A DNA stretch of 64,000 nucleotides from an uncultured Bacteroidota bacterium (lineage in GTDB: Bacteria; Bacteroidota; Bacteroidia; Flavobacteriales; Schleiferiaceae): contig CAJXNI010000013.1 of the NCBI GenBank assembly GCA_913057235.1, positions 10,005 to 74,004 on the forward strand. Reading direction: 5' to 3'. The position numbers and the translations under genes were made by a program. Below, piece after piece: positions 50,368 through 64,000 of this stretch. Position 1 is the first letter of the stretch. Each line of letters opens with the position of its first letter. Under the pieces are notes generated by a model. It was not told the origin of the DNA and did not search any database. It was given only the letters and a program-made list of their open reading frames with translations.

Positions 50368-51748
50368 TTCTCTTTTTCAGGAATTGATGATATTTAAATT
50401 GAATATAGGAATAACGTTTAAGTAAAAATGGCGTAAACCCAACTATATAAGCCAAACCATAAATAAAGATATATAGATAAAAGCCTCTTGGGTTAGTAAC
50501 CATTCCATGTGTAGTTAGCATCCAGGGTAAAAGAGCTAATAAAGAAACAACCGAGGCAGACAAAGCCGCCTTGGCCATTGGATTTCTTTCTTTTTTGGCC
50601 ATGCCTAGATTTCTGATAATTAGGCCAAAGACTAAAACGAAAATAACAATAGAATAAGAAATACCATAGGTGTAGAAGCCTTTGGCAAATGCTGAATGGG
50701 TTGCGGCCTCCCTTTCATCATAAATCCTTTGAATACCGGTTCCTCGTCTTTTTAGTCGGAAAGCGGCATTACCTTCCCCGAGAATTATGAAAGTGGGGCG
50801 GTTTAGCATGAAGACAAAAGGCTCTGTGAAGGACTGTAGTCGCTCCTTTTCACTTTTGGCTAATTCTCCCTCCTGAAAAACAGCCGCTGTTCTTCGTTCA
50901 ATTCGATCAAACATGAAATACTCTTGATTGCCCCAGGCATAAGCTAAAAAAACACTCAGCAAAATAATTAAAGGAATGAGGGTCTTACGAATTTTGGCCG
51001 AGCCCAAAAATAAAAACCCCATTAGTACTAATAGCAAGCCCAGTAAACCTCCTCTGCTGTAACCTAAGAAAACACCGAGAGGACCAACAATTAGAAACAT
51101 GTTAAATACCCTTACCGAACCTTTTATTATTCTTTTAGCATAAACCCTAGCAAAAAAAGCATAAGGCAAAATTGTATTGATAAAGGCAGCGGTTAGATTA
51201 GAAGTTCCAATAAGTGATCGACCACGAACGGCACCTTCTAAACCTTCTAATGTATCATCAGGAGGGGCCAAAAAGGGATTAGAGAAAATGATACCATTTA
51301 CAATGGATCTTGTAAAAGGTAAAGAGGCCAAAACAATAGTTATAGCAGAAATTAAAGCCCCTAAAGTCGCTACCTTAATAATAATCACTAATAACCTATG
51401 ATCAATTAAGAGTTTACTTATGGAAAAAGCAATTGTTATACCGGCAACAAACCGAACAAGCATGTAGATTGACTCTAACGGGTAGCCATACACAAATAGT
51501 CCTTGCAACTCACTTAAGCTGGCTGACACCAGAAGTAAGAACAAAAGACCTGCTGTCTTAATAGTAAAACCTTTTTGCGTTGTAACGTAAAGGTACGAAC
51601 CTAGAATAAACGCATCAATTACATAGAATGGGAGACTGGGTATTAATCTAGCTCTTGGAAAGGCAAAAAGCATGAAAACAAAAACCAAGAAAAACTTAAA
51701 AGCAAGCCTTCGGTTATTTGGTAAATATTTTGCGGAATTCTCAAACAA
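50351..51748 (-). CDS. O-antigen polymerase/ligase-like (Wzy-type) polytopic membrane protein
   Basis: More than 10 hydrophobic helices, and GYSRGGLLGLLLVLMGFLF resembles the Wzy_C core. It sits in the middle of the glycan locus. Confidence 0.7.
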   Translation of the reverse strand: MFENSAKYLPNNRRLAFKFFLVFVFMLFAFPRARLIPSLPFYVIDAFILGSYLYVTTQKGFTIKTAGLLFLLLVSASLSELQGLFVYGYPLESIYMLVRFVAGITIAFSISKLLIDHRLLVIIIKVATLGALISAITIVLASLPFTRSIVNGIIFSNPFLAPPDDTLEGLEGAVRGRSLIGTSNLTAAFINTILPYAFFARVYAKRIIKGSVRVFNMFLIVGPLGVFLGYSRGGLLGLLLVLMGFLFLGSAKIRKTLIPLIILLSVFLAYAWGNQEYFMFDRIERRTAAVFQEGELAKSEKERLQSFTEPFVFMLNRPTFIILGEGNAAFRLKRRGTGIQRIYDEREAATHSAFAKGFYTYGISYSIVIFVLVFGLIIRNLGMAKKERNPMAKAALSASVVSLLALLPWMLTTHGMVTNPRGFYLYIFIYGLAYIVGFTPFLLKRYSYIQFKYHQFLKKRSALQQ

Positions 51749-52829
51749 TTCCTTTCAAATTAAAATAATGTTTAAAATATTTTTCCGCCATTGCCTGACT
51801 GCTGAACTTTAAAGAGTGTACAAAAGCCTCGCGGGCAAAGCTCCTATATTTTTCAAAATTCACCAATACTTCTTCCAAAACCTCTGCAATTTCTGAAATG
51901 TCTTGAGGATCTACCAATCTGGCAAAAGGGAGCGTACTTTCGTTAATATAAACCAGCTCCTTTAAACCAGCCACATTGCTGAGCACCACGGGAAGCGATG
52001 CATTCATAGCTTCAACAGCGGCTAGACCAAAGCCTTCCCAGGCAGAAGGCATGAAAAACAGGTCGCCTTGTTTGAGAAAACCATCAATTGGATCACAGCG
52101 GCCGCAAAACTTCACCCTTTGATTTAGACCAAGGTGATTGACCAGTTTTTTCAAAGGTTCAAGATCTTTACCTTCCCCAGCTATATGATACTCCCAGTTC
52201 AAATGAGCGATGAGGGATAATGCATGAAGAGCTATTCGATAATTCTTTGCCTCCCGCAATGAACCAACGGATACTATTCTAATTACTTTGGGGACTTTTC
52301 TTTTTATTGGTTCCGAAAAAAATAAGGGAGTACCATTTTCAACAACGAGTATTTTTGTTTCATCTACTATTCCGCGACTAAGTAGCGAATCCCTAACTCC
52401 ATTGCTAATGGCAAAGACCCTGTGGTAGCTTCTAAAAATAAATTTATCTAGGATTCTGCCATACCATTTATCCCTCCTCCTATTAGAGGTACTATGTTCG
52501 GTAATAACAAGCCGTCCTCTCAACAGCCCTAGCCTCTTAAAAATAGCTAGATATAGAATCGCAGGAAATAGATGACCGTGAAAAATTACCTGATTATCAC
52601 TAATTCGCTTTAACTCATTAAGCAATTTAAATACTGCCTTAAAACCGTAAGGTGAGTCATTTGCTAAGGTTTTGGAATTAGCTAGGTCTTCTATCTCTAT
52701 ATCATTATGGTACAGGCCTAACACCTTTGAAGGAAAACCACGATCTAAAGAGGCCGAGTGAATATACCTTACAATACGCTCTGCTCCACCAATAGTAGGA
52801 CTATAACTATTGCAAACATGCACAATCAT
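51741..52829 (-). CDS. Glycosyltransferase family 4
   Basis: MPSAWEGFGLAAVEAMNASLPVVLSN. Confidence 0.85.
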   Translation of the reverse strand: MIVHVCNSYSPTIGGAERIVRYIHSASLDRGFPSKVLGLYHNDIEIEDLANSKTLANDSPYGFKAVFKLLNELKRISDNQVIFHGHLFPAILYLAIFKRLGLLRGRLVITEHSTSNRRRDKWYGRILDKFIFRSYHRVFAISNGVRDSLLSRGIVDETKILVVENGTPLFFSEPIKRKVPKVIRIVSVGSLREAKNYRIALHALSLIAHLNWEYHIAGEGKDLEPLKKLVNHLGLNQRVKFCGRCDPIDGFLKQGDLFFMPSAWEGFGLAAVEAMNASLPVVLSNVAGLKELVYINESTLPFARLVDPQDISEIAEVLEEVLVNFEKYRSFAREAFVHSLKFSSQAMAEKYFKHYFNLKGIV

Positions 52830-52843
52830 TTGACAAAATAAGG

Positions 52844-53932
52844 CTAAATATTAGTGTGATTTTTAGAAATAACTTCATATATTCTTCCTAGCCGTTCTCT
52901 GTAATTCTGCCAGCTATTTTGTACAGCCTTAAGTCTAGCTTTTTTACCAATGCTGCTTCTAAGTTTTTTAGAGCTGTAAAGCTCTTGCATCAGATTTGCA
53001 AGACTTTTAAAATCTTCTTGTATAAGAATAAAGCCATCCTTCTTATCTTCTATTATTGACCCCGACTCATCAGTGGTAATAACAGGCAGTCCCGAAGCCA
53101 TTGCCTCATAAACACATTTAGCGGAACCTTCTTTTTTACTGGGGAAGACAAAAATATGCGCTTGATTATACTCATGCACAAGCTCTTGCCAATTTAAAAA
53201 TCCTTTTAATATTAAGTTTTTTGGCTTTAGTTGAATCATTAAGTCTTTAAAGTAGGATGTATTTTTTCCATGGCCACATAAGACTAAATCGGCATTTGGT
53301 AAGTCAGCCAGATTCCATGCTAGCAGTAACTCTTTTATGCCCTTACGATCATTCAAGGTCCCAGAAAACATAAAGCGTATGCGCCCTTCAACTTTCGCCA
53401 CAGGTTTGAAAGTATCGATATCAACACCGAAGGGGTGGTAAAATAATCTTTCCTCAGGTATTCCTATCCCTAAAGCCTTTTTGTAAAGAGGTCTAGAGGG
53501 AACGCAAACATAATCCACATATTGCAAATCCTTACCGGGCCAAATATTCATTGCTACATCTAAAATAGTAACGGCTCCTAATTCTTTAGCTTTTCTAAAA
53601 CAAGCAGGTGAGCGATCCCATGAATGGTAGATATCACAAGACTTTATGTTTAGAAGACTTGCTTGTTCAAAGCGCTTTATTTTGTCATTGTAAGATTTCC
53701 GCTTTATTCCTATCACCCTTGCCAAATAGCTAATCAACCTATCTCTGAATAAAAAAGCAACCCCTAGTTCTTCGACCATTGATGCTGGCAGATTGCTCCT
53801 GTTTTTTGTGCAAAGAAGGCTTACTATGTAGTTCTCTTCTTTAGCCATAGTAGCTGCATTATACGCTACCGCTCCCATTCCTGAAGTTTCTTGAATAGTT
53901 GCATTTATATGTTGAAGAACTTTTAAATTCAT
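52844..53932 (-). CDS. Glycosyltransferase family 4
   Basis: FPSKKEGSAKCVYEAMASGLPVITTD. Confidence 0.8.
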   Translation of the reverse strand: MNLKVLQHINATIQETSGMGAVAYNAATMAKEENYIVSLLCTKNRSNLPASMVEELGVAFLFRDRLISYLARVIGIKRKSYNDKIKRFEQASLLNIKSCDIYHSWDRSPACFRKAKELGAVTILDVAMNIWPGKDLQYVDYVCVPSRPLYKKALGIGIPEERLFYHPFGVDIDTFKPVAKVEGRIRFMFSGTLNDRKGIKELLLAWNLADLPNADLVLCGHGKNTSYFKDLMIQLKPKNLILKGFLNWQELVHEYNQAHIFVFPSKKEGSAKCVYEAMASGLPVITTDESGSIIEDKKDGFILIQEDFKSLANLMQELYSSKKLRSSIGKKARLKAVQNSWQNYRERLGRIYEVISKNHTNI

Positions 53933-53955
53933 GGAGTTTTTAACTAATATTTTGC

Positions 53956-54804
53956 TTACCGAAAATCTTTCCAGTCTAATTTAAGCGAGAATAATTCTTT
54001 TAACTCTTGTACATCCTCGTAAAAAATTGAAGTTAAGTTTTCGCGGTCTTCTAAAGTTATTCTATAGTTATTTTTCTTTGACTCACCCTTTCCAAGCAAA
54101 TTTTTTCCACCATATCTTATAACCGCATTTGGAATAAAGTCAAGATTATATTTCCTCATTTTTTGGGTAAGTAAATGGGCGTATCTCGCTGTTTTCTTAT
54201 ATTTTGGAATTACGCTTTGGTTTTTTTTTCGTACAGAAATGAAGTCCTCTTCAAGGTTAAAGAAGTCTTTTAGCTGGGAATATATCGCAGACGGTCTTTC
54301 AACAATTTCCTCAAATGGGATAATTAAGAATTGTTCACGATGAAAATGCTGAAGATATTGCTTTAAAAATTTTGCATAAAGGCCATTTTCTATTGCTAGT
54401 GATCTAAGCTTTCCTTGCCTATTAGAATAAAATTGCATGAATGTAATACTTTCATTGTGAAGTTGAATATGCCATTTATAATGCGAGTATGCCCTGTCAA
54501 TGGGGTTCCTCACAGTCATAACTATTTTTTTTATGGTTCCCAATTCAGCAATACGCCTGGGTGCCTGAGGCTCCCGTAAATAACCGGGCGTAATTTCTCC
54601 ATACCATTTACAGCCGCTTTTTAGAATTTGGTGTTCGGGAAAAAAGGACTCATAAAACTTAGGGCCTTTATCATAAAAGCGTGTGAAGTACTGTACTTCT
54701 TTACGTTTGGAGGGCAAATAAAAATCTGGGTGCGATTTTAAAACTTCATGAAGCCAAGTTGACCCACCCCTCACGGCACCGATACCTAGAAAATTGGGTT
54801 TCAC
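53956..54804 (-). CDS. Sulfotransferase (heparan-N-sulfotransferase-like motifs)
   Basis: 5'-PSB FLGIGAVRGGSTWLHEVL and 3'-PB TVRNPIDRAYSHYKW. Confidence 0.8.
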   Translation of the reverse strand: MKPNFLGIGAVRGGSTWLHEVLKSHPDFYLPSKRKEVQYFTRFYDKGPKFYESFFPEHQILKSGCKWYGEITPGYLREPQAPRRIAELGTIKKIVMTVRNPIDRAYSHYKWHIQLHNESITFMQFYSNRQGKLRSLAIENGLYAKFLKQYLQHFHREQFLIIPFEEIVERPSAIYSQLKDFFNLEEDFISVRKKNQSVIPKYKKTARYAHLLTQKMRKYNLDFIPNAVIRYGGKNLLGKGESKKNNYRITLEDRENLTSIFYEDVQELKELFSLKLDWKDFR

Positions 54805-56021
54805 TTCTTTAAAACTGCGCTTTTAAAATTCTTAATTTTTGTAACCAATGAGGCCGGTAAATAATCACTTAGACCAGTTTCAAAATTTGGATCTGGTGTG
54901 AATTCTGACCAGCTTTTAGGTTCATGGAATTTTGCCTGGGCAACCACCTCTTTGAATAAATTGGCATAGGCCTTGGCAGCTATAGTATTAGTAAAATACT
55001 TAAGCGCCTTATCGGCAGATGCCTTAGAAAGATTATCCAGTAAAGCTCGGTTATCATTTAAACTGGCTATTGATTCAGCAAATCCAGCATAGTCTTTGGT
55101 TGTGTGTACAAAGCCATTTTTCTGGTGATCAATAATAAAATCAGTGGTGCCTTCAATGAGCCAGCTTACAGGCACCATACCTGCCATCATAGCTTCTAAC
55201 AAAGTGTTAGGGCAACCTTCAAAGTGTGAAGTGAACAACAAAATATCCTGGGTGCCCATGAAGTCTGCCAGCTCATCGGCCTTAAGAGCCCCCATAAATT
55301 CTACACTTCCTTCATGCAAGTAAATCTCCAACAGGTCTTTTAAAATAGACTTGTGCCTTCCTTTACCAGCAATAGAAAGCTTAAATGGTATATCTCTCTT
55401 TTTTAGGGCCTCTAAAATTTTGGGTATATGAAAAACCCCTTTTTGGGTATTTTCCAATCGTCCAATAAATGCTAACTGTAAAACCTTTTGCGCTCCTCTT
55501 TTGGCTTTTCGGGCTTGTTTATAGGCATCTGGATTTATACCGTTAGGTATAAGCTCAATCTCGTTAGCTGACACTCCGTAAGAAGTAATTAGATCTTGGC
55601 GAAGTTTAGGCGTAAGTGCAACTATGCGCTCCAAGCGCGGCTTTCCACTTAGGGTGATTTTGTAACCATGATCAAATCCATTGGCGCAACGCGCCAGTGC
55701 ATGAACCTGCTGGGGCAGGTGCTCTATGGCTGATAAAATGGGTCTTGAATTTATACCCATTACAATATCAATTTTAGCATCGCGCACCCACTTTACAAAG
55801 TGCTTGGCCTGTTTCTTTATTTTTAAACTTTTAGGTGCTAGTTTCACGCAGTTTTCATCGGCATAAGCCTTATCCCAAAGTTCGGCCTCTCTTTTACCTA
55901 CCGAAACGCAAAACATCTCTATGCCTTGCTTGGCTAGTTGAGGTCTAAGATTGCGGTAAAACGTAAAAGTGCCACTATCTTTGGGAATGGAAGCAAATGC
56001 TACTCTAATAGCCTTCTGCAC
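54801..56021 (-). CDS. Glycosyltransferase family 4
   Basis: FTSHFEGCPNTLLEAMMAGMVPVS. ATGA-type overlap with the downstream gene. Confidence 0.8.
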   Translation of the reverse strand: MQKAIRVAFASIPKDSGTFTFYRNLRPQLAKQGIEMFCVSVGKREAELWDKAYADENCVKLAPKSLKIKKQAKHFVKWVRDAKIDIVMGINSRPILSAIEHLPQQVHALARCANGFDHGYKITLSGKPRLERIVALTPKLRQDLITSYGVSANEIELIPNGINPDAYKQARKAKRGAQKVLQLAFIGRLENTQKGVFHIPKILEALKKRDIPFKLSIAGKGRHKSILKDLLEIYLHEGSVEFMGALKADELADFMGTQDILLFTSHFEGCPNTLLEAMMAGMVPVSWLIEGTTDFIIDHQKNGFVHTTKDYAGFAESIASLNDNRALLDNLSKASADKALKYFTNTIAAKAYANLFKEVVAQAKFHEPKSWSEFTPDPNFETGLSDYLPASLVTKIKNFKSAVLKK

Positions 56022-56025
56022 GTGA

Positions 56026-56631
56026 CTAAGCCCGTTTAATTTTATTTCTGATGAGCCTGCCTAAGCGCACTACCGATGAGGTACTTTTTGCTTGATTCAT
56101 GTGTGGAAAGTCAATCTCAGGAATTTCAAGTCCTAAGAAATCGCATAGCTCTTGCCAACCGTCTTCATCTTCCCAATTCACAATTAATAATTGATCTGGC
56201 TTATCCTTAAATAACTCGGTAACCTCTACAATATGGTTCCGGTAAAAATTCAAATACACTTCTTCATCGTCCCATGGGTTGGGAGAACCAAAAAACTGTT
56301 GACGTAAATATTCTGAGTTTTTGCGGGTATTTCTGGAAGTATGTTTTTGCAAGCTATTAAGCCATACCCGCTCATTTGCGCGTAAAGTGAGAACAAACTT
56401 AGCTTGCGGGTACTGCTCTAGTAAGTATTTGTAAATCACTGGCCAGGGCCAGTCTTCAAAACAGTCGTACTGGTCTATTTCTGCCTTTAAATCGCTGTAA
56501 TTCCCTCTGGCAATTTGGTTGATAAGTTGCAGATTGTAAGGGGCCTTTTTATAGCCCAAAATTTCAAAACAGCGGCCTAATGTTGATGTGCCTGTTTTGG
56601 GAAGACCTACTCCAAAAATTTTGTTAGCCAT
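56026..56631 (-). CDS. Sulfotransferase (short, K-T-G-T-S-T P-loop type)
   Basis: FGVGLPKTGTSTLGRCF at the N-terminus and a later LTLRANERVWLNS block. Length is 201 aa. Confidence 0.7.
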   Translation of the reverse strand: MANKIFGVGLPKTGTSTLGRCFEILGYKKAPYNLQLINQIARGNYSDLKAEIDQYDCFEDWPWPVIYKYLLEQYPQAKFVLTLRANERVWLNSLQKHTSRNTRKNSEYLRQQFFGSPNPWDDEEVYLNFYRNHIVEVTELFKDKPDQLLIVNWEDEDGWQELCDFLGLEIPEIDFPHMNQAKSTSSVVRLGRLIRNKIKRA

Positions 56632-56637
56632 ACATAA

Positions 56638-57678
56638 TTAATTTGTCTGCAATTTGGCAGGGTGGTTGGTTTCAAGTTTAGTAAACACTAGTAGCTGCTT
56701 TGCTAATATAGCGGTATCGTAATGGTTTTCTGCCCGAAGCCGAGCTTTTTCACCCATTTCCTTTACCAGTTGCTTTTGCTGTAATAGCAGCATCAATTTG
56801 TCTCGCCAATCAGCTAATGTATCCGCTATAAAGCCGGTCTTGCCACTTTGAATAATAGCGCTATTGGCGCTATTGGCCGAGGCTATTGTTGGCAAACCGC
56901 TAGCCATGTACTCTAATGCTTTAAATCCGCATTTGTATTGATTGAATTCATTTCTTTGTAATGGATATACTCCAATATCAAATTCCTGGATGCCCTGGCG
57001 TATAGCAGAGGGATCTTCCCAATTAAGTTGATCCACCCATTCTATCTTTAGCCCGGGTACTGCTTTAAAAGCCTCGCTTAGTTCAGCATCGCCACATAGG
57101 CCAATAATTTTTAGTTTAAAACTCACCTGCTGGGCTAAGGCCATGACAACGGGCTTTAAAATTTCCAACAAATCCTGCTTATAATGAGGGCCGTTGCCAA
57201 TCCAACCAATTGTAAGTGGGGCGGCAAAATCTGTTTTAACCTTATAATTTCGCGTTCTTACCCCCGTAGGCCAGTAATGCACCAAAGGTTGAAACTGCCT
57301 CACGTATTCTACCAAAAATGGGCTGCCAGCTAATACGCCTGAAGCAGCTTGAGCACAGGCTTTAAAATATTTTAAGGTGGCTGGGTTGTTGTTTCTTGAA
57401 GGGGAATCATCAATATCTAAAAAAACCTGCTTGCCTAAAAGGCGCCCCCATTTGATTAATAGTAGGTGATACTTACCATAGCATTTTTGGAAAATCACTA
57501 CCTCTGAAAGCGCTATATGCCAGGCAAATGCCAGGAACTTTTTTAGGGCATGGCCGTGCATAAGCCTTACGCTCAAATAAGCCTGTAGCTCTTGGGCTAT
57601 CCAATAGGCTCTCACACGTGAACTGGCTTTGCTCTTATCGCCTAGGGTAATAAAAAGAAGACGGGAGGAGTTAGCCAT
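56638..57678 (-). CDS. Glycosyltransferase, GT-B fold (GT1/GT4-like)
   Basis: C-terminal GFKALEYMASGLPTIAS motif and a Rossmann-like N-half. Confidence 0.7.
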   Translation of the reverse strand: MANSSRLLFITLGDKSKASSRVRAYWIAQELQAYLSVRLMHGHALKKFLAFAWHIALSEVVIFQKCYGKYHLLLIKWGRLLGKQVFLDIDDSPSRNNNPATLKYFKACAQAASGVLAGSPFLVEYVRQFQPLVHYWPTGVRTRNYKVKTDFAAPLTIGWIGNGPHYKQDLLEILKPVVMALAQQVSFKLKIIGLCGDAELSEAFKAVPGLKIEWVDQLNWEDPSAIRQGIQEFDIGVYPLQRNEFNQYKCGFKALEYMASGLPTIASANSANSAIIQSGKTGFIADTLADWRDKLMLLLQQKQLVKEMGEKARLRAENHYDTAILAKQLLVFTKLETNHPAKLQTN

Positions 57679-58801
57679 TTTTTATTTTGCGTAGTTCACG
57701 TTTAATGCCCTGCAAACTATAACGCAGCAACATTTTACCGTTTGCCGGATGGAGCGGGCTAGCGCTAGTCCAGGTATCTTGAGCAAGGCGCTCAAACAGT
57801 TGAGACCACTCTTCGGCTCTCTTTTCAGGTGTGTAGAACTCTAAAACCGTTTGCCGGGCTTGTTCTCCCATTGCTCGTAATTGCTGAGGGGAAGCGCACA
57901 GTTCCTTAATTTTTTGCTCCCATTCATGGTCATCGGCAAAAGCCGAATTAAGCCCATCTCTAATAGCTTTTTTATGAGGATCTGTAGGGGTAGCCAAACT
58001 AGGCACTCCGCAAATACCTGCCTCTATAAATTTAAGCTCACTTTTTGCCTGGCAAAACATCTCTTGCTGCTCCAGTGGCACTAAATTTAAATCAATCTGT
58101 TCAAAGATTTTGGTATACTCAGCGTAAGGAATAAAATCACGGTGCAAGAACTGCCGCCCAAAGCGGTAAAACTTCTTACTAAACTTTAGCGGCCCCACTA
58201 AAAGCAATTGCAGTCTAGGGTTGTCTTTCAATGACTTTAGAAGCGCCTCCTCTACAATTTTAAAATCGCCATTATGAGTGCTGCTTCCGCAGAGGTAGGC
58301 CATGGTAATGAAGTCTTTGTTCAGACTTTGGCGCTGCTTGTGTATAGCATTACCATTGCGTATAAAATCTGTACTTAAGCCATTTAAAATGGTGCTTACC
58401 TTAGAAAGGTGCTTTCTGGCTCTTTGGGCCAGAAAATCTGTGGAAACTATTACATGGTCACAAGCTTGCATAGCCTTTAAAGCCGATGCGTAATCTTTAT
58501 AGTTTTTCTTTCCAATCCTTACCAGGTAATCTGACCCCGCAGGTTCAAATAAGAGGTCATCCGTATCGTACAAGACGGGGCTACCTTGAGCTTTGGCGGC
58601 ATTTATGAAAGCTTCTGTATACTCATTATAAAAAGCACGGTGCAAAACCACAATTTCTCCTTTCCTGGGGATGGACTGGTGGATTCTTTTTACCCTGACA
58701 TCATAACCTTTAGATCTCAAATACTGGGCTGGCTGCAAACAGCGTAACTGGGTAGAACCATTATGGCGGATGGTTAAGTTAGAGTAAAAACCAACTTTCA
58801 T
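57671..58801 (-). CDS. Glycosyltransferase, GT-B fold
   Basis: C-terminal SELKFIEAGICGVPSLATP. It has a similar architecture to the preceding gene and overlaps it by 8 nt. Confidence 0.65.
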   Translation of the reverse strand: MKVGFYSNLTIRHNGSTQLRCLQPAQYLRSKGYDVRVKRIHQSIPRKGEIVVLHRAFYNEYTEAFINAAKAQGSPVLYDTDDLLFEPAGSDYLVRIGKKNYKDYASALKAMQACDHVIVSTDFLAQRARKHLSKVSTILNGLSTDFIRNGNAIHKQRQSLNKDFITMAYLCGSSTHNGDFKIVEEALLKSLKDNPRLQLLLVGPLKFSKKFYRFGRQFLHRDFIPYAEYTKIFEQIDLNLVPLEQQEMFCQAKSELKFIEAGICGVPSLATPTDPHKKAIRDGLNSAFADDHEWEQKIKELCASPQQLRAMGEQARQTVLEFYTPEKRAEEWSQLFERLAQDTWTSASPLHPANGKMLLRYSLQGIKRELRKIKNG

Positions 58802-58809
58802 GAAGAAGC

Positions 58810-59907
58810 TTAGCTAGAGCCTAACTTTAAATTTAAAAAATACTTAATACGCGTACTTAGGGGGAGGTATTTTAAATAAGGCTTGGTGGTAGCCACTAGC
58901 GGCACTCCGTTTTGGGCCGAGCGCACCAGCAAACGCGCAAACTTTTGCCGTTGTTCTTTAGAACCTTTAGCAGTTAAAAGCTCAATTAGTTTTTCATGAA
59001 TACGGTTGAGTTCACTTTTAAAATTCTCGGGACTAACCGCCTGCTTTTGCTTATTTAGGGTGGTTCCTAACTTGAGGTAGCGCTTAATTTCATCTCGCGT
59101 AACCATTTCTAACTGTTCCTTATTAAGATTAGGCTTTAGCCGATCAAGCACCTTCAAGTGATCTTGAAGATATATTATTCTCTTGGGTCCGCTTAACAAA
59201 GTTTGTGAAAGAGAGGTAGACAAGACACGGTAGGCAGTCAATACCTCCGGTACATAGGCTACTTTGGCTTTTGCCGATATATTTAACCACGCAAAAAAGT
59301 CTTCCTGCAGAATATCCTCCGGATAACGGCCTACATACTGCATTAGTGCTGAAAAGCGAATGAGCACCGTAGGAGAGTGTACCACCACCCCTTTATTAGC
59401 ATGACCCGTTAAAATGGCCTTGAAAGTATTTTCTGGAAATTGATAATTCTCTTCAAAAAAACGAGGTTCCATAATTTCGCCATGCTCATTTACGGTGCAA
59501 TAATTGCCACAGACAAGCGCTACCTCTTCATCTGCTTCCAAAACCGCCATGTGCTTCTTTAACTTTTCAGGGTACTGAAAATCATCACCCGGAATGGGCT
59601 GCAAATACTTACCACTAACCAGGGGTAAAGCTTCATTTACCGTTGCGCACAAGCCCATGTTCTGTTGGTGGGCTAAAAAAATGCAGTTCACCTCATTTCG
59701 ATCAATCCAGTTTTGGATTACCTGCTGCGAATTGTCGGTTGAGCAATCATCTGTAATGATCAATTGCAAATTGGGGTAATCCAGCGCCAGCCCACTGTCA
59801 AGTGCTTTTTCTACATATTTTGCGTGGTTATAGCAAACGCATAACAAAGTGACTAGTGGCTTCTGTGGGTCTTGAAATCGTACCAAGCCTCTTACCTCCT
59901 GACTCAT
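58810..59907 (-). CDS. Glycosyltransferase family 2
   Basis: [31 protein letters not shown] and a PGDDF motif. Confidence 0.85.
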
Positions 59908-61010
59908 CCTTTAAAAAATTCTTTGATGCTATTTGACACTTGGCTTACTTGATCTTGGGTCATACCTACCCAAAGCGGGAGGCTAACTACTGTTTGAGCC
60001 AGCTCTGTAGCTATTTTCATTGAGCTATACTTTAAACTGCCCTTAGGATAGGCCTTCTGCTCATGAATAGGAACCGGGTAATGAATTAGGCTGCCAATAC
60101 CTGATTGTGTTAAATGATCTTGCAGGGCTTGCCTTCTTTCCGTTCTAATCACATAAAGGTGATAGCTATGAGTGGCCTTTGGATGTAGGGTTGGCAAAAT
60201 CAGGTCACCCACTCCGGCCAATTGTTGGTTATACCAACTGGCAATGGTCCTTCGTTCTTCAGTCCATTGCTCTAAATGCTTTAATTTAACTCTTAAAAAA
60301 GCCGCTTGCATCTCATCTAGGCGCATGTTGGCACCTAAAACATCGTTGTAATACTTTTTGGCCGAACCATAGTTGCGGTAAATTTCGGCCTTTTGAGCCA
60401 GTTCATCATTGTTTGTGGTAATCGCCCCTCCGTCTCCTAAAGCCCCTAAGTTTTTTCCAGGGTAAAAACTTACACCATTGATATCTCCAAAACTTCCGGT
60501 GTAAACCGAGTTATAGGCTGCCAAATGAGCCTGAGCATTATCTTCTACCACAAACAAGTTATGCCTCTTGGCGATGCGCATGATCGCATCCATTTCACAT
60601 GCCTGACCATAGAGATGCACGGGCATAATGGCTTTGGTGGAAGGGGTAATTGCCTCCTCAATTAGCGCAGGGTTTAGATTGTACGTTACTATAGATGGTT
60701 CTACCAAAACCGGCATAGCGCCCACGGCCGATACTGCCAGGGCCGTAGCTATGTAGGTGTTGGAAGGGATAATCACCTCATCACCGGGCCCAATTTCCAA
60801 CACTCTTAAGGCGATGATCAGCGAGTCTAGCCCATTACTCACTCCCACGGTATGGTTAACCTTAGTGAGTTGGGAGTATTCAGTTTCAAAGCCCTTCAAC
60901 TGTCCTCCCATAACAAACCAATTGCTGTTGTAGACTTTCTCAAAGGCAGCTTGCATATCGGCTTGCACCGACTTATGCATAGGTGCCATGTCTAAAAAAG
61001 GAATGTTCAT
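59904..61010 (-). CDS. DegT/DnrJ/EryC1/StrS-family PLP-dependent sugar aminotransferase (FdtB-like candidate)
   Basis: [18 protein letters not shown] and [19 protein letters not shown] (PLP Lys). Length is 368 aa. Confidence 0.88.
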
Positions 61011-61013
61011 AGG

Positions 61014-62813
61014 TTATAGTTCCTGGAGTTCAACCATTTTTCTAAATCGCGGAGTGCGCCTCATAAGCTCTTCAAAAGTGCCTACATCTTCTATAAGACC
61101 TTTATTGAGAACAACAATTCGGTTTGCATTCTTAACCGTAGAAAGGCGATGAGCTACAATAACTACTGTGTATCTACCTTTTAAACTGTCTATATTCTCT
61201 TGTATGATTCGTTCTGTTTGAGAGTCAAGAGCAGAGGTGGCCTCATCCAGCACCAATAGTTGCACCTTCTTGTAAAGCTCCCGAGCTATTGAAATTCTTT
61301 GCTTTTGACCGCCACTTAAGTTAGCGCCACTGTTCTCAAGTAGGTGCTTCTCCTTAGCCGGTAAGGAATTTACAAATTCTTCTATCGAAGCTTCTTGCAA
61401 GGCAGCACGGAAACGAGCCATATTTTCAGGGGTAGGATCTTGCCAGAGTGTGATATTATTGAATACTGTATCATTAAAGATGACAGGCTCTTGTGTAATG
61501 TAGCCGATTCTCCTTTGAAAATCCTTCAAGTTGGTTTGTCCTAAATCCTTTGATTCTAATAATACTTTGCCCTGGCTAGGCTTTAGCAAACCACAAATAA
61601 TATTTATTAGCGTTGACTTTCCGCTTCCACTCTCGCCAACAATGGCAATAGTTTCATTCTGGTTAATGGTTAAGTTCAAGTTTTGAAGAATCCAGTCTTT
61701 TGCTTTAAAGGAAAAGCTAACATTGTCTAATTTTATGAATGGTATGTGCTCTGGCACCTTTCCCTCCTTCAGCTTCTCCTGGCCCTTCTTAAGATCGGTT
61801 AACAACTCCGTTGTATTGCGCAAAGACCCCGAAACTCCCAAATAGGTATTCCATTGATTTTGCACCATCATGAAGGCGCCTAATGCGCGATAAAAGAATA
61901 AGAGGGAAATTAAAATAGGCGCTAAACTTGCTTCAAAAACTCTAATTTGCAGGATTATTACGACAGCCATCACTGCAATAATTAAAGGTTCTTTAGAAGC
62001 AAACAAAGTAGCTCTAAGTTTTCCAATATGCACTTGCAATCGTTCAAGAAAAAAAACGCTTTCCTTGATTTGTTTATAAAAAAGCTCGGATGACCCTGAA
62101 GCTTTTAAATACTTGAAGTTGTTTATGAACTGGATAATTCTATTCTGAAATAAATTACCTTGTGTAGACACTTCATAGGAAGCACTCTTGGTTCTGGAAA
62201 AAATAGACCGATAAGCCAAATTGCTTAAAGCGCCACCCGCCAAGGCCATTGATGCAAACCGGAAGTCTATGCTTATGGCAAATCCTGCATAAACGAGGAC
62301 AAGAATCATTTGCTCAAAAGATTTATAATAGGATTGAACAGCCGTAGAAACCCTACCAATCTCACCCGTTAGGGTATTCTGGATACGACCTACATCCAGG
62401 GATATAAATTTTTTGTAAGAGAAATCTTTTAATGCCTTTGAAAGATTCAAGCGGAGTTGTGCTACAAAGAATTGCTGAACTTTGACGAAATAGAAGTGCG
62501 CAAAAAACTTAAAAACCCCCTTTAGAAAAAAGAAAAACACTAATAAGAACAGGATTGTTTCTATGGTAAAAAAAATACCTATCTCATTGAACCAACTTAT
62601 AAAATGACCATAGTCTCCAGCTTCGGAAGGGGTAAGCTCATTGTCACCACCAGCTAATTTCAAAAGCGGTAAAAACATAGCTAAACCTAAACCATCTAAT
62701 AAACCAAAAGTGAAACTTATCAAAAAGGCGATAAACAATCTATGCCTCAGAGTTGAGTAGAAAAAAGCAAAACCCGAAAAATACTGCTTAATAAGTTTTT
62801 TGATGGTCTCCAT
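61014..62813 (-). CDS. Fused TMD-NBD ABC exporter (MsbA/PglK-like)
   Basis: Six-helix N-terminal half, Walker A GESGSGKST, signature LSGGQKQR and Walker B LLVLDEATSALD. Confidence 0.88.
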   Translation of the reverse strand: METIKKLIKQYFSGFAFFYSTLRHRLFIAFLISFTFGLLDGLGLAMFLPLLKLAGGDNELTPSEAGDYGHFISWFNEIGIFFTIETILFLLVFFFFLKGVFKFFAHFYFVKVQQFFVAQLRLNLSKALKDFSYKKFISLDVGRIQNTLTGEIGRVSTAVQSYYKSFEQMILVLVYAGFAISIDFRFASMALAGGALSNLAYRSIFSRTKSASYEVSTQGNLFQNRIIQFINNFKYLKASGSSELFYKQIKESVFFLERLQVHIGKLRATLFASKEPLIIAVMAVVIILQIRVFEASLAPILISLLFFYRALGAFMMVQNQWNTYLGVSGSLRNTTELLTDLKKGQEKLKEGKVPEHIPFIKLDNVSFSFKAKDWILQNLNLTINQNETIAIVGESGSGKSTLINIICGLLKPSQGKVLLESKDLGQTNLKDFQRRIGYITQEPVIFNDTVFNNITLWQDPTPENMARFRAALQEASIEEFVNSLPAKEKHLLENSGANLSGGQKQRISIARELYKKVQLLVLDEATSALDSQTERIIQENIDSLKGRYTVVIVAHRLSTVKNANRIVVLNKGLIEDVGTFEELMRRTPRFRKMVELQEL

Positions 62814-62909
62814 AGAATTATTGAGTACTTAACGGCTCCGCCTCCTCACTCACAAATTAATGTAGGAGCTATGGCTATTATCTGGCTCTCCCCACTCCTT
62901 AAGAAATGG

Positions 62910-64000
62910 CTAGCTTTTTTTAAACCCCCTGGCTAGCCTTGAAAAAAAAGAAGCTTTTTCCTGATCGTCATCGGTATAACCATAACCATAGCCGTAACCA
63001 TAGCCGTAACCATAACCATATCCATAACCATATCCGTAGCCATATCCGTAGCCGTAGCCGTAGCCCTTTTGTACCGTATAATCATTGATTACAACAGCCA
63101 AGTGGTCTATTGCCCTATTCTCATAGCGGTCTTTTAAGAATTTGAGCAACTGCTTATCCGTGTACCCTTGACGCACCACATAAAAAGTATAGTCAGCTGC
63201 CTTCATAATTTCGAAGGAATCAGCTACAAGGCCCACCGGAGGGGTATCCAAAATGATATAATCATATTGCTTCCTCAGCTCAGCCAGCATTTCCTTAAAT
63301 GAATCCCCAATAAGCATCTCTGACGGATTGGGAGGAATAGGCCCTGCGGATAAAATATCTAGATTATCAAATTCTGTACTTTGAATAGCCTCTTTAACTG
63401 GTAACATGCCTGCAAGTACATTTGAGACTCCTTTGTCATTAGTTAGATTAAAGTCATTATAAATTTTAGGCTTTCTTAAATCTAAACCAACCAAGATGGT
63501 TTTGCTGCCACCCATGGCCAATATAGAGGCCATGTTTATGCTATTAAAGGTTTTACCCTCTCCGCCAATAGAAGAGGTAAACAATAATACTTGTGATTTT
63601 TTCTGGTGCTTGCCTGCTAAAAAAGATAAATTAGCTCTAAAGGCTCTAAATGACTCAGAAATGCTTGATTTAGGATGCTTAATTGCTACGAGGTTTGTTG
63701 GTTTTAAACTATGGCCAATCATGGCCACTACCGGCACAGTAAGCATTTTTTCAATGTCTTCTTTGGTTCGAATTTTACCGTCAAAGTAATCTCTTACAAC
63801 TACTATGGCTATGGGTAAAGCCAGTCCAATTAAAAACGCCATGGCAAAAACCACCATAGGATTAGGACTGATCGGGAAAGGACTCACCAAGGCCTCATCA
63901 ACAATGCGGTTATCGGGGCGATTGGCCGCTAAAGCAATTCCTGCCTCAGCCTTCTTTTGCATGAGAAACAAGTAAAGATTTTCATTTAGCTGATACCTCC
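62910..64000 (-). CDS. Polysaccharide co-polymerase / BY-kinase (Wzc-like tyrosine autokinase); N-terminus lies beyond the window
   Basis: Walker A TSSIGGEGKTF, Walker A' VGLDLRKP, Walker B IILDTPPVG and a C-terminal Tyr cluster. The track start (TTG at 63971) is not real: the frame stays open to nt 64000 (...RYQLNENLYLFLMQKKAEAG...), which is typical of the Wzz-like periplasmic part. Confidence 0.85.
   Translation of the reverse strand, partial: RYQLNENLYLFLMQKKAEAGIALAANRPDNRIVDEALVSPFPISPNPMVVFAMAFLIGLALPIAIVVVRDYFDGKIRTKEDIEKMLTVPVVAMIGHSLKPTNLVAIKHPKSSISESFRAFRANLSFLAGKHQKKSQVLLFTSSIGGEGKTFNSINMASILAMGGSKTILVGLDLRKPKIYNDFNLTNDKGVSNVLAGMLPVKEAIQSTEFDNLDILSAGPIPPNPSEMLIGDSFKEMLAELRKQYDYIILDTPPVGLVADSFEIMKAADYTFYVVRQGYTDKQLLKFLKDRYENRAIDHLAVVINDYTVQKGYGYGYGYGYGYGYGYGYGYGYGYGYGYGYTDDDQEKASFFSRLARGFKKS
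62976..63065 (-). repeat. Coding (GGN-TAY)x15 tract, giving a perfect (Gly-Tyr)15 tail in the BY-kinase
   Basis: Minus-strand read: ggc tac x3, gga tat, ggc tac, gga tat, ggt tat, gga tat, ggt tat, ggt tac, ggc tat, ggt tac, ggc tat, ggt tat x2. The tract is followed by TDDDQEK. Confidence 0.95.

Follow-up and report, generated by a model that had tools for sequence, protein, structure and literature searches.

The subject of this analysis is the C-terminal tail of a Wzc-type bacterial tyrosine kinase (BY-kinase), in which exactly 15 Gly-Tyr pairs, (GY)15, are followed by a short extension. The gene is encoded at the end of a stretch of 64,000 nucleotides (contig CAJXNI010000013.1, positions 10,005–74,004), called the window below, and the kinase heads a Wzy-dependent polysaccharide locus of a member of the Flavobacteriales related to the Schleiferiaceae and Owenweeksiaceae. 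The closest described kinases are the P-type Wzc of Escherichia coli (K30 capsule and K-12 colanic acid; structures 7NHR, 9R62 and 3LA6), the F-type CapA/CapB pair of Staphylococcus aureus (4JLV, 3BFV and 2VED), and Ptk1 (PGN_1524) of Porphyromonas gingivalis, a characterised BY-kinase of the Bacteroidota. Reviews and primary papers mention only a variable "tyrosine-rich cluster" (PMC4007543, PMC9800525, PMC4082711), and a literature search found no published description of GY-repeat tails in BY-kinases.

In the octamer of E. coli K30 Wzc, the tail of each subunit goes into its neighbour's active site, as seen by cryo-electron microscopy, molecular dynamics and mutants, and the tyrosines are phosphorylated in order, the most C-terminal first and then towards the N-terminus (PMC11986026). 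A YxY "molecular ratchet" was described for this protein in 2025: the tyrosine at position i-2 occupies a pocket that excludes phosphotyrosine (PMC11986026). The ring disassembles after the fourth phosphate, Y706 is never phosphorylated, and with a Glu mimic in the tail it is the tyrosine N-terminal to the mimic that is best placed at the active site (PMC11986026). CapA/CapB also forms an octameric ring with the tail in the neighbouring active site, but it is made of two polypeptides and has a short YYHYYG-like tail that lacks both a GY repeat and a C-terminal extension. Ptk1 belongs to the same phylum as the window kinase and, by description, has the same single-chain transmembrane layout; a GY repeat is absent from the description in its paper, and the protein was studied for community signalling and for other substrates.

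The window kinase is built like E. coli Wzc: at the N-terminus a Wzz-type, periplasmic domain between two transmembrane helices, next a P-loop kinase in the cytoplasm that carries the Walker A, A' and B motifs, and last a C-terminal tail rich in Tyr. The orthologues also show the pairing of wza with wzc, and the YxY spacing of the tyrosines is the ratchet spacing. The tails themselves are different. E. coli Wzc has ca. 7 tyrosines in an irregular tail of ca. 17 residues that ends the protein, while the window kinase has 15 tyrosines in strict GY alternation and then an extension of 21 residues, first acidic and then amphipathic.

The tract lies at 62976–63065 on the minus strand, encoding residues 312–341 of the 362 that fall within the window. 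Both the translation and Tandem Repeats Finder confirm a first-pass annotation of this DNA, which had reported a perfect (GY)15 followed by TDDDQEK. The 15 tyrosines form 14 consecutive, overlapping YGY steps (Tyr at i and i+2), and the tract begins 5 residues past the last β-strand of the kinase core. The segment C-terminal to the last Tyr is TDDDQEKASFFSRLARGFKKS, which is followed by the stop codon at 62910–62912. Glycine is encoded by ggc, gga and ggt and tyrosine by tac and tat; in order, the tract reads ggctac three times, ggatat, ggctac, the block ggatat ggttat twice, the block ggttac ggctat twice, and ggttat twice. Tandem Repeats Finder describes it as 15.0 copies of a period of 6 (79% matches) or as a period of 12 (88% matches). 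An overlapping gene on the opposite (plus) strand was considered and ruled out, as there are no open reading frames (ORFs) of at least 60 amino acids across the tract on that strand.

The best explanation for the tract, and one we hold to be probable, is that it is the lineage-typical Y-cluster of a Wzc-type kinase, maintained as GY by selection on the protein and operating in the ratchet mode inferred from E. coli. The lineage-typical part of this explanation comes from the relatives. Two DNA-pattern scans of public contigs (Flavobacteriales metagenome-assembled genomes) returned kinases with 49–65% identity to that of the window, from Schleiferiaceae, Croceimicrobium, Owenweeksia, Cryomorphaceae, Thermaurantimonas and UBA7878. 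Every one of them has a perfect GY tract, with lengths of 6, 9, 12 (six different sequences), 12.5, 13, 13, 14, 14 and 17 units. The alignment with relatives that the first-pass annotation had proposed thus does reveal variation in tract length between species of the clade, from 6 to 17 units with a mode of 12, compared to 15 in the window.

In a maximum-likelihood tree of the kinase domains, made with the tails removed, the window and these relatives fall in one clade of 16 rows (support 100/95), and all 16 have perfect tracts of 6–17 units. The perfect GY tract is therefore a trait common to the whole clade, and because of this the tail of the window kinase is no oddity but belongs at the long end of a style typical for the lineage. 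The sister row and all other groups in the tree save one have GY runs of at most 6; the tree also contains a second, independent origin of a long GY run (L039, L040 and L043, 9–10 units). The first-pass annotation had asked whether such tracts would turn out to be both ubiquitous and already characterised. Within the clade they are ubiquitous, which takes away much of what had seemed new, although no paper characterising them was found.

Across the wider Bacteroidota family, represented by 126 proteins of at most 50% identity, tails are rich in Gly and Tyr but interrupted. These representatives have a median of 10 Tyr (range 2–20) and a median of 6 YxY (maximum 13). With 14 YxY the window tail exceeds that maximum, as expected from the earlier description of it as an unusually large array, and it is at the 99th percentile for Tyr. 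The yardstick used in that description, a handful of tyrosines, fits E. coli and S. aureus only, and measured against the Bacteroidota median of 10 the tail is less exceptional than it had been made to appear. The best matches in a search of 5.8 billion proteins were only 41–51% identical to the window kinase, and none of the 116 proteins newly returned by that search had more than 6 consecutive Tyr in GY alternation.

One of the rows in the tree deserves separate mention. L005 is a contig labelled as Algoriphagus sp. (Cyclobacteriaceae), with a Wzc that has 89–93% protein identity to those of L004, L033 and L034, its relatives in the Schleiferiaceae clade, and nests among them. This contig has probably been mis-binned, or its locus has been transferred.

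The evidence for selection on the protein comes from comparing the synonymous and non-synonymous sites of the tract. Among 14 orthologues, codon identity within the tract is 0.46–0.48, the level given by random choice among the codons used, and matches the synonymous codon identity of the kinase domain, 0.42. Every residue of the tract nevertheless stays G or Y in all 14. In a neutral simulation with 0.1 substitutions per site, (GY)15 was left intact in 0.14% of the runs; at 0.2 it was lost from all of them. Since Gly and Tyr have been kept while the synonymous sites have been randomised, the tract is held by selection acting on the protein, and its amino acids are under strong purifying selection. 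The first-pass annotation had argued from the mixed codons alone that the periodicity is kept at the protein level; the randomised synonymous sites, the constancy of G and Y and the loss of the tract in more than 99.8% of simulated runs at 0.1 substitutions per site bear this out.

Duplication has also left a record in the tract. Hexamers at lag 2 are identical 7 times, compared to 2.0 expected from codon shuffling (p = 0.001), which is a 12-nt periodicity, and homogeneous codon runs are found in two of the relatives, L002 (six ggttat and seven ggctat units) and L033. Because of this periodicity and these runs, block duplication must be counted as a contributor: occasional duplications of 6 or 12 nt built and resized the tracts. 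The earlier statement that the tract was not produced by slippage is for the same reason too strong. The irregular codon order on which it was based is real as far as the mixture of synonymous codons goes, and adjacent hexamers are identical at the level of chance (3 compared to 2.1 expected), but the significant 12-nt periodicity shows that the order is not wholly irregular. Selection and duplication both act on the tract, and selection dominates.

The closest pair of orthologues, L001 and L003, have kinase parts with 100% protein identity and 91% identity in synonymous codons. Each has a tract of 12 units, in which 8 of 24 codons differ, compared to 27 of 302 in the rest of the gene (Fisher p = 0.002), a hint that the tract undergoes silent turnover at a higher rate than other parts of the gene. 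Unit shifts were considered as the cause of the excess and ruled out: allowing unit insertions or deletions at a cost of 1 left the 8 differences unreduced.

The periodicity, the homogeneous runs, the range of 6–17 units among species and the excess of silent differences between L001 and L003 would all suit a different account, in which the tract is a coding microsatellite, either neutral or of the contingency type, with its length set by slippage and either varying freely or switching a phenotype between cells. We consider this very improbable. Slippage would homogenise the codons, and in most tracts they are not homogeneous; in the window no perfect hexamer run exceeds 3 units and the identity of adjacent hexamers is that of chance. 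A length of exactly 12 units is shared by six lineages whose codon patterns differ. All length changes would be in frame, so they would not provide an on/off switch.

The comparison of strains gives the same picture of a stable tract. The 90 nt are identical in three independent assemblies – the window, a contig from ENA (L029) and one from JGI (L030) – that represent two haplotypes, one shared by L029 and L030 and the other that of the window. Because the three assemblies agree, an assembly artefact was ruled out as the source of the tract. No sign of a slippage switch was found in the tract or in the comparison of the three assemblies. Public sequencing runs yielded only low-coverage Logan contigs broken inside the repeat, and GY-coding fragments from organisms that are not related, which carry no information on length polymorphism.

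Beyond the tract, the extension has two parts. The first is an acidic patch, TDDDQEK, at 62955–62975 (minus strand), directly after the last Tyr. Four of the first 8 positions past the last Tyr are acidic, compared to a median of 2 in the relatives, and similar patterns are found elsewhere in the clade (TDDESEK, TDEEES, FEEDS and YYGEDD). The second is a basic, amphipathic segment, ASFFSRLARGFKKS, at 62913–62954 (minus strand), which ends the protein. Within it FFSRLARGFKK has a hydrophobic moment of 0.89 and a net charge of +4 (shuffle p = 0.004), and AlphaFold2 predicts a helix at residues 351–360 (predicted local distance difference test, pLDDT, ca. 77). A motif of two hydrophobic residues, any residue, Lys or Arg, and two further hydrophobic residues is found at the end of 61 of 156 relatives, compared to 0.8 expected. 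The literature search found no description of either the acidic patch or this terminal motif in Bacteroidota BY-kinases.

The terminal segment resembles the membrane-targeting sequence of E. coli MinD, KGFLKRLFGG (PMC5471200). BY-kinases and MinD have a P-loop ATPase fold class in common (NCBIfam MinD matches), and the likeness extends to both sequence and amphipathicity: SFFSRLARGF here, and SFFKRLFKG, FIKRLF or FWKRLF in relatives. By this resemblance the amphipathic end may bind the membrane. Unlike MinD, Wzc is already an integral membrane protein, and between its ATPase core and the motif lie the GY tract of 30 residues and the acidic patch.

If the tail works as in E. coli, the kinase would form an octameric ring with each GY tail reaching into the neighbouring subunit's active site. 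The tyrosines would be phosphorylated sequentially from the C-terminus towards the N-terminus, with the Tyr two residues upstream held in the tyrosine pocket at each step. The build-up of phosphate would break the ring, a phosphatase would reset it, and the cycling would gate polymerisation and export. The 14 YxY steps of (GY)15 follow one another without a break, and x is in each case Gly, the smallest residue there is, which would give maximal flexibility and no side-chain clash; the tract can therefore be read as an extended, register-free ratchet track. In view of the result with the Glu mimic in E. coli, the acidic patch may be a built-in start signal, mimicking a phosphorylated residue and setting the starting register. 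The terminal amphipathic helix may hold the end of the tail at the membrane.

Several points weigh against this reading. The phosphorylation, oligomeric state and polymer behaviour ascribed here to the window protein and its clade are carried over by analogy from E. coli Wzc. E675, the acidic residue with which the tyrosine pocket of the E. coli protein (7NHR) rejects phosphotyrosine, aligns in a pairwise alignment to a Gln, in TDKQLL, next to gaps and with an Asp two residues upstream; CapB also misaligns by one residue. No motif of a low-molecular-weight protein tyrosine phosphatase (LMW-PTP) or a PHP phosphatase turned up in the window in a simple pattern search, itself a weak test. Both the window and L030 stop short of the gene upstream of wzc, and the pairing with wza is known from the orthologues. 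The terminal motif is absent from the clade members L001–L003, L006, L007 and L011, so tethering to the membrane cannot be essential. Finally, because four phosphates are enough to break the E. coli ring, 15 acceptors are not obviously needed, and for many of them the role may be no more than that of a spacer.

The last of these points can be extended into an account of its own, that the tract is a passive, flexible spacer or tether in which only the last few Tyr are phosphorylated, the rest being a Gly-rich linker that allows the tail to reach the neighbouring active site with its end pinned to the membrane by the amphipathic helix. The limited number of phosphates tolerated by the E. coli ring and the unphosphorylated Y706 are consistent with this, as are the predicted disorder of the tract, the frequency of the amphipathic motif among relatives and the range of tract lengths within the clade. 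A spacer, however, need not be strictly Gly-Tyr, yet there has been no substitution of either residue across saturated synonymous divergence, and several clade members with a perfect tract lack the tethering motif. We regard the spacer, though plausible in part, as quite unlikely to be the main explanation.

The tract and the two parts of the extension could also be combined in a more elaborate reading. The Wzc tail in this clade, and more loosely across the Bacteroidota, might be a three-part device made up of a YxY track of ca. 12–17 steps, an acidic patch that sets the register by mimicking the first phosphotyrosine, and a MinD-like helix that pins the end to the membrane. It might work as a multi-step phospho-timer, or else as a self-associating segment dissolved by phosphorylation. 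This proposal is tentative, and we think it unlikely as it stands. If the timer form of it were true, the number of steps would set the lifetime of the octamer and hence the chain length of the polymer.

Self-association can be considered by itself as well. Unphosphorylated GY tails would stick to each other by Tyr stacking or steric zippers, holding the oligomer or larger clusters together until phosphorylation dissolved them. Synthetic GYGYGYG heptapeptides do assemble into fibrils (PMC8163036), a ring would concentrate eight tails of 15 Tyr each at the membrane, and the strict conservation of Gly and Tyr fits sequence-specific packing. The known role of the Y-cluster already accounts for the conservation of Tyr, however, and the interrupted tails of most Bacteroidota do the same job. 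AlphaFold2 shows no ordered state, in a monomer model that cannot test for this kind of assembly. As an explanation for the tract, we find self-association hardly probable at all.

The preferred explanation, a selected Y-cluster with the ratchet mode of E. coli, leaves the annotation of the gene unchanged: it codes for a normal kinase of the Wzc type that belongs to a polysaccharide locus. The find is tidy, unsurprising and of modest interest: a known kind of kinase with a selected, long GY Y-cluster. Its modest value lies in the natural experiment that it offers for the YxY ratchet model of 2025, as the clade has a perfect track that varies from 6 to 17 steps. Tails from the clade could be used to address how many phosphorylations are tolerated per ring and whether the length of the track tunes the length of the polymer.

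The part of the gene within the window, at 62910–64000 on the minus strand, is the 3' part of a wzc-type gene for a BY-kinase and polysaccharide co-polymerase (PCP-2a), with 362 codons and a stop codon. The gene leaves the window at 64000 and its 5' end is outside; the near-identical JGI contig L030 encodes the full protein of 830 amino acids, which has 100% identity to the window product across the 362 in-window residues. Profile and structure matches agree with the earlier assignment of the tail to a BY-kinase. In Pfam the window product matches GNVR (37 bits) and AAA_31 (53 bits), and in NCBIfam it scores 153 bits to TIGR01007, "polysaccharide biosynthesis tyrosine autokinase", with a cut-off of 108. 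Matches to solved structures range from 2e-44 to 1e-26. CapA/CapB is the best match to the kinase core (2e-44), and the match to E. coli K30 Wzc (7NHR, E = 8e-36) is one of low identity.

The full-length protein from L030 has Wzz, GNVR (44 bits) and AAA_31 domains. The Wzz match, at residues 23–113, scores 22.1 bits and so falls under the cut-off of 25.5, while the orthologue L003 has a Wzz match of 34.5 bits. Hydrophobic helices are found near residues 30–52 and 515–536, giving the single-chain layout in which the kinase is fused to a Wzz-type domain between two transmembrane helices. The second of these helices, PMVVFAMAFLIGLALPIAIVVV, is encoded at 63795–63860 (minus strand), after the GNVR region; it is a hydrophobic stretch that aligns with the second transmembrane region of E. 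coli Wzc, and AlphaFold2 places it in a helix at residues 47–72 of the in-window part.

Judged from its sequence, the gene is an ordinary Wzc-type BY-kinase in which the three Walker motifs are complete. Walker A (SSIGGEGKT, 63549–63575, minus strand, like the other two motifs) aligns with the position of 7NHR that was mutated as K540M, and its G148 and K149 are invariant among 48 aligned relatives. Walker A' (ILVGLDLRKP, 63468–63497) aligns with the DxD/R motif of CapB and Wzc; D173 is invariant among the relatives, and R175, K176 and P177 are nearly so. Walker B (YDYIILDTPP, 63237–63266) aligns with IIIDTPP of Wzc, and its D251 and P254 are invariant. An AlphaFold2 model of the monomer, made with the 48-relative alignment, has a mean pLDDT of 84.8 in the kinase core and a pLDDT below 50 at residues 312–344, which include the tract and are predicted to be disordered.

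Downstream of wzc and in the same direction is a polysaccharide locus of ca. 22 kb (40556–62813, minus strand), annotated from Pfam scans of the window ORFs and, in part, from the gene calls of L029, which is 99.7% identical to the window over 8.5 kb (54577–63087). It encodes an ABC-type protein, a DegT aminotransferase, glycosyltransferases of families GT2, GT1 and GT4, two sulfotransferases, a protein of the Wzy_C polymerase/ligase family, an epimerase, an initiating Glycos_transf_4 protein, a methyltransferase and an acetyltransferase. The two sulfotransferase genes (53956–54804 and 56026–56631; Sulfotransfer_1 and Sulfotransfer_4 families in the L029 gene calls) are interspersed with those for glycosyltransferases, and their presence suggests that the product is probably a sulfated exopolysaccharide or capsule. 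On the other side of the kinase gene, a Wza homologue (Poly_export and SLBB domains) ends at the start of wzc in all 11 of the clade orthologues that have upstream sequence.

The gene adjoining the 3' end of wzc (61014–62813) encodes the ABC-type protein, of 599 amino acids, with an ABC ATPase domain in its C-terminal part (residues 376–527); the N-terminal part has no match to a Pfam family. Its role could be that of an ABC-type exporter or flippase in a locus otherwise of the Wzy type.

The differences between the strains are unevenly distributed along this region. In this part the window differs from L029 and L030 at 15 positions, all within the 136 bases at 62814–62949, which comprise the final 40 nt of wzc (with 2 synonymous differences) and the spacer between wzc and the ABC gene, including a 3-nt insertion. 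In the 1,050 nt of wzc upstream of this cluster there are no differences. Such a cluster could be the edge of a recombination event or a regulatory spacer that evolves fast. The match to L029 ends at position 54577 of the window, and past that point there is one piece of 298 nt at 90% identity (ca. 51700–54577 in the window compared to 8515–11659 in L029). The distal part of the polysaccharide locus, with the GT4 and Wzy region, thus appears to have been swapped between strains.

A different kind of ending was found in four other BY-kinases. In L017, L021, L044 and L046, which are Bacteroidales from ruminant samples, the G/Y-rich tail is followed by a natural poly-His stretch of 6–9 residues at the end of the protein, for example KKKKHHHHHHHHHSNSEK.

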